The position numbers were made by a program, and so were the translations under genes. A stretch of DNA of 64,000 nt from Escherichia phage wV7: the sequence record NC_019505.1; one strand, 5' to 3'. Within the stretch, counting starts at the first letter, position 1; each line of letters starts with the position of its first letter. Below are positions 39,013 through 41,618 of this stretch, piece after piece. Under the pieces are notes generated by a model, which worked only from the letters and a program-made list of their open reading frames with translations, was not told where the DNA came from and searched no databases.

Positions 39013-39594
39013 TCATTTATATACTGATTCCGTAAGGGTTGTTACTTCATCTATTTTATACCAATGCGTTTCAACCATTTCACGCTTGCTTATATCATCA
39101 AGAAAACTTACATCTAACTGAACCGTTGAATTAACACGATGCCTTTTAACGATGCGGGAAACAACTACTTCATCCGCATAAGGTAATGCAGCATATAGTA
39201 GAGCGGGTCCTCCAATTACACTTACTTTGGAATTCTGATCAAGCATAGTCTCGAATGGTGCATTAGGGCTTGACACTTGAATTTCGCCACCAGAAATGTA
39301 AGTTATATATTGCGCCCAAGTAATATAGAAATGTGCTAAATCACCGTCTTTAGTTACAGGATAATCACGCTCAAGGTCACACACCACAATATGGCTACGA
39401 CCGGGAAGTAATGTAGATAATGACTGGAACGTTTTAGCACCCATAATCATAATTGTTCCTTCGGTACGAGCTTTAAAATTCTGGAGGTCCTTTTTAACTC
39501 GTCCCCATGGTAACCCATCACCTAAACCGAATGCTAATTCATTAAAGCCTTCGACTGTTTTAGTTGGAGCATAAGCAAATACTAATTTAATCAT
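39013..39594 (-). CDS. frd: Dihydrofolate reductase
   Basis: 193 aa, starts [10 protein letters not shown]...; position next to td. Confidence 0.85.
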
Positions 39595-39971
39595 TTTAAT
39601 TCCTTAGTTGCCTTTTTGATGGCAGTAAAATCTTTGCGAATATCAAGAACCAATTTATAAAGATGTTTAATTATATCTGTATCAAAATATGATACCGCAC
39701 AACGAGAATTGCGAATATCTTCTAATGAATACTTGCTTTCACTTGTACCATATCCAATGATACCACTAATGCACTTGTCATTAAGCGTATATTTCTGTGG
39801 ACCATCAATAATATTTTTAGGATAGATGTAAAGGCTCCAATCAAATTTTTGTTCAAGCGTATTAACCTTAACTTCAAGAATCAGTTCAGGATGTGCATCA
39901 TCTTTAGCAAAGCAAGTGTATTCAGTAAGCATTATATTTTCCTCAAATTCATTTAAATCAAGACTATGCAA
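39591..39971 (-). CDS. Hypothetical early protein (frd.1 position)
   Basis: 126 aa ORF; start overlaps frd. Confidence 0.5.
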
Positions 39972-40024
39972 TTTTTAAAGCATTGCATAATAGAATTCAT
40001 CATTCATAAACTCAAATACAAAAA

Positions 40025-40384
40025 TTATATTATCTCCCATCGAAAAGGGTCAGGAGCATATCCGATAGAGTTAATCATTTTAACTAAAGTTACCATTCCT
40101 TTGTTAACTGCTTGTGCGATTTCATCAAAAACTTCATCGCTATCATCATAAAGGTCATTAAAAAGTTCTAACACGTTCTTCTGAACTTTTAATTTATGAC
40201 CAACAATCTCGCCTACAGTAAATTCGTTTCCGCCGATTCCAGTGTAAAACGTAATTACACCAGTTAACAGACTTTCGCGAGAATCTAGGTCATGTGATAA
40301 ATTAATATAAGCCATCCCGGGTGCAGTTTTAAGTTGGCAACGAATTCTTACTTGGGTAATTCCGGTTACATGAATGTCGGACAT
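40025..40384 (-). CDS. Hypothetical early protein (start set at internal ATG with ribosome-binding site)
   Basis: Track ORF 40025..40549 overlaps the upstream gene; gaggaaaataatATG at about 40384. Confidence 0.5.
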   Translation of the reverse strand: MSDIHVTGITQVRIRCQLKTAPGMAYINLSHDLDSRESLLTGVITFYTGIGGNEFTVGEIVGHKLKVQKNVLELFNDLYDDSDEVFDEIAQAVNKGMVTLVKMINSIGYAPDPFRWEII

Positions 40385-40394
40385 ATTATTTTCC

Positions 40395-40634
40395 TCACGC
40401 TTTCTTAGCGACTTTCCAGTCAGCTTTAAATTGGTCAACGTCAGAGTGATGAATCCAGAAACCAGATGAGCTACCATCTTCATAAAGAGGACAACCATCA
40501 CACTCATCTTCCCATCCCATATCACGTAAAAGATGTTCAGCTTTTTCAATGAGTTCAGAATCTTTACCGATGATATTAAAATACCATTTACCTCTAACTT
40601 CTGAATCTTTGATGCTCTGGCGTTGTAATCTCAT
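40395..40634 (-). CDS. Hypothetical early protein (start at ATG after promoter)
   Basis: Track ORF 40395..40724 reads through the promoter; ribosome-binding site plus ATG at about 40634. Confidence 0.5.
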   Translation of the reverse strand: MRLQRQSIKDSEVRGKWYFNIIGKDSELIEKAEHLLRDMGWEDECDGCPLYEDGSSSGFWIHHSDVDQFKADWKVAKKA

Positions 40635-40660
40635 TTTATTCTCCTCAAGTTGATAGGGTA

Positions 40661-40690
40661 ATAGTATCACACTACTACCCTGTTGTAAAC
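40661..40690 (-). promoter_or_regulatory. Early promoter (GTTTACA, 17 nt, TACTAT)
   Basis: Minus strand: tTTTACAacagggtagtagtgtgaTACTATTaccctatcaacttgaggagaataaaATG. Confidence 0.55.
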
Positions 40691-40692
40691 AA

Positions 40693-40953
40693 TTATTTTT
40701 GAATTTTATCGAGCCACTTACCAAGCTTAATCATTTCTTTAGTAGCCTTTTCCATACTTCTGAACTTAACCAATAGAGGATAGGTATCGACACCCATAAC
40801 TAAACTGGTTACAAGACTGTGTTCACCCACAAGCCATAACGAATACGTTTGAATATCGAGTCCGTAATTTCTGTCTTTATGGACCCGTACACCCATCACT
40901 TCAAATTTCTCACTAGCTTTTTCTACCGCATCCAGGAAATCATCTTTAGTCAT
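40693..40953 (-). CDS. Hypothetical early protein
   Basis: Track ORF 40693..40995; internal ATG at ~40953 forms an ATGA overlap with the upstream stop. Confidence 0.45.
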   Translation of the reverse strand: MTKDDFLDAVEKASEKFEVMGVRVHKDRNYGLDIQTYSLWLVGEHSLVTSLVMGVDTYPLLVKFRSMEKATKEMIKLGKWLDKIQK

Positions 40954-40954
40954 A

Positions 40955-41341
40955 TTAGGCCTTAAAAGTTTTTCGCAAAAGTTCAATGATTTCATCTACA
41001 TTGTTTTCGTCAACAATGCAGTGAATTTTTGTTACGCCAGAAACTATACCTTCATTAGCGGATTGAGGCTTTTCTAAAGTTACCTCAGTAAAGTATTTGA
41101 ATTCTTCAGAGTAAATCTCAAAATACGTCTCAAGTGGGCCACCCGCCATGTATTCAGTGCCGTCTTCCATAGTTACACGTACCACACAGTCACCAGCACA
41201 ATCATCACTTTCCATTTCATCTACAACAAAACTAGGTCCGTGCTTCTCTATTAAATTTAGCATCATTACATTGCAACGGCACTCGTTAGCAAAGTCATTT
41301 TTAAATAAAGGGTTAATGATATAAGTTTTTCCAACTTCCAC
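40955..41341 (-). CDS. Hypothetical early protein
   Basis: 128 aa ORF. Confidence 0.5.
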   Translation of the reverse strand: MEVGKTYIINPLFKNDFANECRCNVMMLNLIEKHGPSFVVDEMESDDCAGDCVVRVTMEDGTEYMAGGPLETYFEIYSEEFKYFTEVTLEKPQSANEGIVSGVTKIHCIVDENNVDEIIELLRKTFKA

Positions 41342-41387
41342 TTTGATTTCCTCATTTTAACGGGGCTATCAAATAGCCCCTTGATAA

Positions 41388-41618
41388 TTATTGTTCAATC
41401 AGTCCCATGTAAAATTCTGCGTCTTCAGAATCCATGCCATCGCAATATTCATTAGCCATAAAGCGGGTAAGGTCTTCAAGAGGACCTTCAATGACAATAG
41501 AAAAATTGCAATAATTGGGATCATCATGAATACTTGTGATACTAAGTTCAGGATAACGATTACGAATAATCTCTTCAATATATTCAAAATCAACGATGTC
41601 AATATCAACTTTAGCCAT
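41388..41618 (-). CDS. Hypothetical early protein (frd.3 position), ~76 aa
   Basis: Track ORF reads through the promoter; real start [16 protein letters not shown] after ribosome-binding site gaggaaaataatATG. Confidence 0.5.

Follow-up and report, generated by a model that had tools for sequence, protein, structure and literature searches.

Among the closest described relatives of the locus examined here are the hyperplastic regions of T4-type phages, in which small early genes vary between conserved core genes and for which PeSL-mediated shuffling has been published (Arbiol 2010, PMC2839356; Comeau 2014, PMC4122927), with TTTACW-N17-TAYWAT as the T4/PST promoter consensus (PMC4122927). We examined the segment between gene 32 and frd in a 64,000-nucleotide (nt) stretch of Escherichia phage wV7 (NC_019505.1; the window), where six small open reading frames (ORFs) occupy positions 39591-41618. 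Based on comparison with related phages, this locus is probably an already-annotated, typical hyperplastic (variable accessory) segment of the RB51/RB68-type T-even phages, and most of its difference from T4 appears to reflect contraction in T4.

Published observations on the families of the six genes were found for frd.2 and frd.3 only. GoF and MotB.1, as well as Frd.2, have been predicted to have in common an LSm-like fold at the N-terminus (Kim et al. 2025, PMC12152347), and an frd.2 amber mutant is viable, the gene being non-essential (PMC12152347). Of the T4 genes of unknown function, frd.2 alone was 'Fit' in a CRISPRi-ART study (PMC11879866), and the frd.3 transcript is one of the abundant T4 RNAs that carry an NAD cap (bioRxiv 10.1101/2024.04.04.588121). 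No mention of the families DUF7247 and DUF5417, to which two further genes belong, was found in the literature searched.

Gene content of the gene 32-frd segment

An earlier sequence-only reading of the window had described six consecutive small minus-strand ORFs between gene 32 and frd, and all six were recovered at the positions it gave. In the direction of transcription, the genes and their flanks are:

41766-42674, gene 32, upstream flank
41388-41618, minus strand, frd.3, 76 amino acids (aa), isoelectric point (pI) 4.05, Pfam PF05798
40955-41341, minus strand, frd.2, 128 aa, GTG start, Pfam PF03197
40693-40953, minus strand, X239 (RB51ORF239), 86 aa, pI 7.9, phrog_4423
40395-40634, minus strand, frd.1, 79 aa, DUF5417, Pfam PF17438
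40025-40384, minus strand, X237 (RB51ORF237), 119 aa, DUF7247, Pfam PF23905
39591-39932, minus strand, X236 (RB51ORF236), 113 aa, phrog_8592
39013-39594, minus strand, frd (dihydrofolate reductase), conserved downstream flank, 96.4% identical to T4 Frd

Packing is tight, with the X236 stop overlapping the frd start (ATGA), X239 starting 1 nt past the frd.2 stop and X237 lying 10 nt downstream of frd.1. Each of the six ORFs has a strong Shine-Dalgarno (SD) sequence of the GAGGA type.

With positions 39000-42700 as the query, Megablast gave matches in 917 phage records. Identity over this stretch is 100% with E. coli O157 typing phage 7 (KP869105) and 99.8% with both RB51 (FJ839693) and RB68 (KM607004), and sequence similarity places the window in the RB51 group of Tequatrovirus. 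In its GenBank record, RB51 has these six ORFs annotated in the gene 32-frd interval. Across these three phages the genes (RB51ORF236-241) keep their order and no difference from the window was found; the three genes additional to frd.1, frd.2 and frd.3 are called just 'hypothetical protein' (RB51ncORF236c, 237c and 239c), and X236, X237 and X239 are labelled hypothetical in every annotation source.

Phage T4 (NC_000866, 145.7-146.8 kb) has the same flanks, with gp32 98.7% and Frd 96.4% identical to those of the window, but only frd.3, frd.2 and frd.1 between them, as the sequence-only reading had stated. Orthologues of all six genes at the same position in T4 would have counted against that reading, but T4 lacks a complete set of full orthologues. 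The gene content between gene 32 and frd varies among T4, RB51, AR1, JS98, FP43 and CC31, and the flanking core genes are conserved, as in the published hyperplastic regions.

Mosaic structure and cassette exchange

In pairwise protein alignments, gp32 and Frd of the window are 98.7% and 96.4% identical to their T4 counterparts, and Frd.3, Frd.1 and Frd.2 are 86.8%, 88.8% and 45.3% identical, respectively. The low value for Frd.2 is unevenly distributed along the protein, the N-terminal ~95 aa being ~30% identical and the last 29 aa identical except for the final residue. At the DNA level, positions 41045-41325 gave no blastn match to T4 or AR1 and form a sharply bounded divergent allele, bordered by sequence that is near-identical to T4, and the whole gene shares 76% DNA identity with frd.2 of Mosigvirus FP43. 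Judged by these similarities, frd.2 in the window is a mosaic allele closer to the FP43 form. In Frd.3, differences from T4 are confined to a hypervariable patch at residues 29-40 (41499-41534; VQDS-KFWSIQ in T4), the rest of this acidic protein being identical.

Gene order and content differ in several ways among other relatives. Phages of the AR1/RB27/RB32 type also carry six genes ahead of frd (frd.3, frd.2, X239, frd.1, X237 and orf81), in the same order as the window and with X239 100% and X237 78% identical, but their last cassette is orf81 instead of X236 and the N-terminal domain of their frd.2 is another allele. In the Dhakavirus JS98 the order is 32, frd.2a, frd.2b, X239, frd.3, frd.1, another ORF, X236 and frd. 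The Mosigvirus FP43 holds two frd.2-like genes, an X236-like gene and an frd.1-related 82-aa ORF (77% nucleotide identity to frd.1 of the window), and in the Karamvirus CC31 frd.1 overlaps an X237 homologue among unrelated small ORFs.

Mosaic breakpoints were seen against T4, AR1, JS98 and FP43, and several of them fall at shared regulatory motifs, namely a promoter -35 element, a 15-nt repeat running from the ribosome-binding site (RBS) to the ATG, and start/stop overlaps. Silent divergence (dS) between the window and JS98 was 0.33 for X236, 0.58 for X239 and 0.52 for frd.1, compared with core values of 1.39 (frd) and 1.24 (gene 32). Identity to JS98 is 97-100% over the first ~180 nt of X236 and drops to 58-90% in frd. 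The low dS of the cassettes together with the 5' identity of X236 indicates that cassettes moved between genera more recently than the divergence of the core genes. Deletion, replacement or swapping of single-gene cassettes thus accounts for the different gene content among relatives.

Regulatory elements

The features other than genes identified in and around the cluster are:

41724-41742, minus strand, intrinsic terminator of gene 32, GGGGACCCTAGAGGTCCCC followed by a T-run, from a terminator scan
41662-41691, minus strand, predicted T4-type early promoter upstream of frd.3, GTTTACA-N14-TGG-TACTAT
41616-41630, translation-initiation string at frd.3
41362-41380, minus strand, stable hairpin between frd.3 and frd.2, GGGGCTAT-TTG-ATAGCCCC, inverted repeat I7
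40661-40690, minus strand, predicted T4-type early promoter upstream of frd.1, GTTTACA-N14-TGA-TACTAT
40632-40646, translation-initiation string at frd.1
40382-40396, translation-initiation string at X237
39933-40024, minus strand, 5'-end scar of orf81 (AR1 ar1_244/RB32 type), 92 nt with an in-frame stop, from a MAFFT alignment
39930-39944, translation-initiation string at X236

The strict T4 early-promoter pattern GTTTACW-N14-TGN-TAYWAT has six matches across the 64 kb, each of them on the minus strand, and shuffled sequences give an expectation of 0. A looser sigma-70 scan was not enriched (18 found versus 18.7 expected in shuffles), and it is therefore the strict pattern that carries weight. 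Two of the six strict matches serve the small-gene cluster; the other four lie at 28739-28768, 55837-55866, 58302-58331 and 61420-61449. The sequence-only reading had assigned two internal early promoters to the cluster. Their number holds, but just one of them (40661-40690) is internal, with a core identical to that in T4, while the other (41662-41691) precedes frd.3 directly after the gene 32 terminator and outside the span of 39591-41618. From consensus and position, we infer that both function as promoters. Host sigma-70 RNA polymerase would probably read them right after infection, giving two putative polycistronic messages, frd.3-frd.2-X239 and frd.1-X237-X236, the latter running on into frd. 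X239 would be translationally coupled behind frd.2.

Both promoters match the consensus of the published PeSL cassettes (TTTACW-N17-TAYWAT) and are followed by an SD sequence and ATG, at 41616-41630 and 40632-40646, respectively. For the frd.3 promoter the gene 32 terminator provides the stem-loop directly ahead, and the pair fits a composite terminator/promoter (PeSL-like) element. The frd.1 promoter fits in part, as its stem-loop (40655-40681; conserved in T4) lies inside it, with an 11-bp stem over the spacer and -10 element. The hairpin at 41362-41380 is GC-rich and has no T-run (dG -8.0 kcal/mol, z -3.2). An Rfam scan of the whole window returned no matches.

The frd.3 and X237 copies of the 15-nt string from RBS to ATG, GAGGAAAATAATATG, are identical, and those at X236 and frd.1 match it to 87%; these strings are possible short-homology sites for cassette exchange. 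The window resembles the published regions in its variable small early ORFs between conserved core genes, its indel breakpoints at regulatory motifs, its terminator stem-loop directly ahead of the frd.3 promoter and its promoter consensus. It differs in that several breakpoints lie at RBS/ATG repeats or within coding sequence, a placement more in keeping with illegitimate or short-homology recombination than with PeSL mini-circles.

Distribution and possible functions of the small proteins

The three genes with no place in the T4 annotation differ widely in their distribution. X239 was found in 350 phage records, with Drexlerviridae, Phapecoctavirus and Vequintavirinae among them; it matches phrog_4423 at E 8.5e-50 and has a conserved motif, KDRNYGLDxQTxSLWLVG. 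It had no relatives in bacterial genomes (185,579 species representatives) and no match among sequences of the Protein Data Bank (PDB). X237 occurs in 464 records across Tevenvirinae genera, as well as in Phapecoctavirus and a podovirus, and PF23905 was detected in all homologues found. Its AlphaFold2 model (predicted local distance difference test score, pLDDT, 75.9; predicted template modelling score, pTM, 0.69) shows a five-strand meander and two helices, for which no convincing fold match was obtained. One metagenome contig encodes a 196-aa protein (P0025) that joins DUF7247 and orf81-type sequence in a single reading frame, either a natural read-through of two adjacent genes or a sequencing frameshift.

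X236 was found in 78 phage records, all of T-even phages: those of the RB51 group and of Dhakavirus, and a single Mosigvirus form that is 53% identical. It matches phrog_8592 at E 2.7e-76, and its homologues form seven clusters among 5.8 billion (5.8e9) proteins and two real clusters among 1.84 billion (1.84e9) representatives in an exhaustive profile search. A 642-aa repetitive protein (P0029) with a borderline E of 7e-4 in the latter search was judged spurious. On these searches X236 is an ORFan restricted to T-even phages. Its AlphaFold2 model, of moderate confidence (pLDDT 66.7, pTM 0.59), has a four-stranded sheet followed by helices and no convincing fold match. A possible origin of the three proteins as diverged paralogues of one another was rejected (hhalign probabilities 0.2-0.9%), a concatenated profile search with X237 and X239 returned DUF7247 proteins only, and no sequence link of X236, X237 or X239 to solved structures was found.

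Frd.2 of the window weakly matches the goF PHROG (E 0.0059). It belongs to the Pfam family FRD2, and its N-terminal domain, the part in which the predicted LSm-like GoF/MotB.1/Frd.2 family would have a five-stranded SH3/LSm-like beta-barrel, is strongly diverged from that of T4 Frd.2; by analogy with this predicted family, it may act on RNA.

No functional motif is recognisable in any of the six genes, in line with the sequence-only reading. Their products have a pI of 4.05-7.95, mostly acidic to near-neutral. Because they are small, mostly acidic to near-neutral and free of enzyme motifs, conditional accessory binding roles are expected, and these putatively soluble proteins would most likely, although the indication is weak, bind host or phage macromolecules as conditionally useful accessory factors. 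The same reading had raised host takeover or anti-defence, which by analogy would be a sensible starting assumption for early accessory genes of T-even phages. A more specific proposal, compatible with a hyperplastic segment, is that at least one of X236, X237 and X239 inhibits a host immunity system by direct binding, as a factor of counter-defence or host range. The genes occupy an early-expressed position, as judged from the promoters; they are patchily distributed, with horizontal movement among genera and families of phages; purifying selection on X236 and X239 is strong (ratio of amino-acid-changing to silent substitutions, dN/dS, of 0.10 and 0.03, respectively); the 5' half of X236 passed very recently between Tequatrovirus and Dhakavirus; all three are dispensable in T4, which is without them; and X239 is without bacterial relatives. 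The same features, however, fit any conditionally useful accessory gene. There is also no detected similarity to any characterised protein, the X236 and X237 models lack a fold match, and none of the genes next to them in unrelated phages belongs to a known family (20 of 20 neighbours in Webervirus KOX1 and Phapecoctavirus Ro121c4YLVW are without a Pfam family). Scans with PADLOC (host defence systems) and NCBIfam gave nothing meaningful, and general scans yielded no link to counter-defence proteins by family, fold or neighbourhood, anti-defence profiles not having been searched. We regard a counter-defence or host-range role for at least one of the three as plausible but less probable than its absence, and it is rather unlikely that X236, or the cross-family X239 or X237, would represent such a protein of a new type and a new fold.

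Gene loss and gain relative to T4

DNA alignments revealed that, between frd.1 and frd, T4 retains the X237 RBS and a 16-codon ORF (MYVIEIIQVSIRFQLK and a stop, versus MSDIHVTGITQVRIRCQLK in the window). This remnant is followed by AGGATTTACGTAATG, the 3' end of the 81-aa gene orf81, which corresponds to ar1_244 of phage AR1 and sits between X237 and frd in that phage. The X237 remnant and the orf81 3' end therefore identify T4 as the product of a deletion that begins at codon 17 of X237 and extends as far as the end of orf81. The T4-type junction was covered to at least 80% in 17 of 495 matching phage records. By comparison, homologues were found in 469 records for orf81 (436 at at least 90% identity), 464 for X237, 350 for X239, 78 for X236 and 1418 for frd.1. 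From these alignments and counts, the three-gene state of T4 is a rare deletion derivative that lost X237 from codon 17 on and nearly all of orf81.

The segment that distinguishes the window from AR1 carries a scar of its own. The 92-nt gap between X237 and X236 translates to a homologue of AR1 MIFVFEFMNDEFDYAIFNALHNPDLNEFKE (tblastn match H240), and in the MAFFT alignment its homology to AR1 stops at the X236 RBS. As the orf81 5' scar ends there, X236 replaced the rest of orf81. On the alignment evidence orf81 is the majority allele and X236 the sole lineage-specific gain, made by replacing a gene and not by adding one.

The sequence-only reading had viewed the cluster as expanded, that is, an RB51-type lineage would have inserted three new genes into a T4-like three-gene ancestor. 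This has mostly the wrong direction, as T4 kept the orf81 3' end together with the RBS and first 16 codons of X237, few records (17) have the T4 junction, and X237 adjoins frd.1 in distant genera, in Karamvirus CC31 and in PEi20. X236 is indeed a minority allele, but arrived in place of orf81. Only for X239 is insertion possible, the gene being cleanly absent from T4 and present in ~190 records at at least 90% identity. Taken together, expansion from a T4-like ancestor is improbable, and a hyperplastic segment that has contracted in T4 remains the preferred interpretation.

Several points weigh against this interpretation. The polarity of X239 is less clear than that of X237 and orf81: the 3' end of T4 frd.2 has the appearance of a fusion between the ends of frd.2 and X239, on the basis of a shared 8-nt string, and the gene may possibly have been inserted in the RB51 lineage. 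The phage record counts take in redundant GenBank/RefSeq duplicates, the assigned promoters and operon structure are consensus-based predictions, and the frd.1 promoter is without the upstream stem-loop that defines a PeSL.

Ahead of frd.1, T4 has an extra 84-bp segment absent from the window, located between the frd.1 promoter and the frd.1 RBS (~4506-4600 of the T4 sequence L002). It contains a 22-aa hydrophobic ORF with a GGAG RBS, encoding the peptide MFAPYIMAAVMLVCLYLLIKAC, which is not annotated in the T4 RefSeq record. The gap between X239 and frd.1 is 58 bp in the window and 141 bp in AR1, and the corresponding T4 gap is 139 bp; from gap length alone, AR1 may also carry the 84-bp segment.

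The frd.1-X237 pair, X236 and coding status

Frd.1 (DUF5417) has a conserved CDGCP motif. Its gene and X237 (DUF7247) are 10 nt apart in the window, overlap in CC31 and are neighbours in AR1, PEi20 and Entb_45, an arrangement that might indicate an obligate two-protein module. Such an obligate pairing is improbable, given that frd.1 occurs in 1418 records and X237 in just 464, that T4 keeps frd.1 without X237, and that the Phapecoctavirus homologue of X237 has no DUF5417 neighbour.

A homologue of X236 in PQ341120 (phage EAWsc9) is labelled as a PemK/MazF-type toxin. Apart from this annotation string, under match H136, nothing pointed to a toxin: no Pfam match was obtained even at E <= 1, nor any NCBIfam match, and a profile search of PDB sequences returned nothing relevant. 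With no profile match and no SH3-like MazF/CcdB fold in the model, we rejected the assignment as very improbable.

Four of the six genes belong to Pfam families (Phage_FRD3, FRD2, DUF5417 and DUF7247), and none was found for X239 and X236. The frd.3 orthologue scored 129.6 bits against Phage_FRD3 (PF05798; gathering score 28.1) over profile positions 1-75 of 75, the frd.2 orthologue 115.9 bits against FRD2 (PF03197; gathering score 29; phrog_622 at E 9.5e-39), the frd.1 orthologue 118.7 bits against DUF5417 (PF17438; gathering score 23.9) and X237 111.1 bits against DUF7247 (PF23905; gathering score 27). All six matched PHROG families of unknown function (E <= 2e-36). Values of dN/dS, calculated by the Nei-Gojobori method for each gene against its homologues, were 0.03 for X239, 0.10 for X236, 0.51 for X237 and 0.09-0.44 for frd.1-3, with 0.44 for Frd.3 between the window and T4. 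By this measure X236, X237 and X239 are conserved under purifying selection. Because of the PHROG and Pfam matches and dN/dS values of 0.03-0.51, the six ORFs are, on comparative grounds, real coding genes and not chance ORFs. That some are spurious ORFs in a non-coding early leader, as their small size and the abundance of chance ORFs in AT-rich genomes (51 ORFs of at least 30 aa in 6 kb) might suggest, has almost no chance of being correct given the SD sequence and PHROG match of every ORF, homologues in other genera and families at 27-60% amino-acid identity and dN/dS below 1 for all genes tested.

Neighbouring genes

Further differences from T4 were observed on both sides of the segment. 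Where frd and td overlap in T4, the window has a 115-aa ORF inserted between them (38646-38993, minus strand; phrog_1928, without a Pfam family). A direct repeat of 9 bp, TAAATGAAA, borders this ORF at 39011-39019 and 38595-38603, both copies hold the frd-stop/td-start overlap, and the RB51 annotation reads 'RB32ORF229c, flanked by 9 bp repeat'. The td gene (37740-38600, minus strand) is an uninterrupted 286-aa ORF, whereas T4 td is split by a group I intron encoding I-TevI. On the other side, gene 59 directly follows gene 32 (42675-42773), where T4 has the homing endonuclease gene segG.

Implications for T-even phages

The gene 32-frd segment clearly shows the deletion, replacement and exchange of single-gene cassettes at regulatory motifs, and scars of these events can still be seen. 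T4 is not the baseline for this locus, and using it as the reference leads to common T-even accessory genes being misread as expansions. As short, conserved and dispensable early proteins, X236, X237 and X239 are candidates for counter-defence and host-takeover screens.

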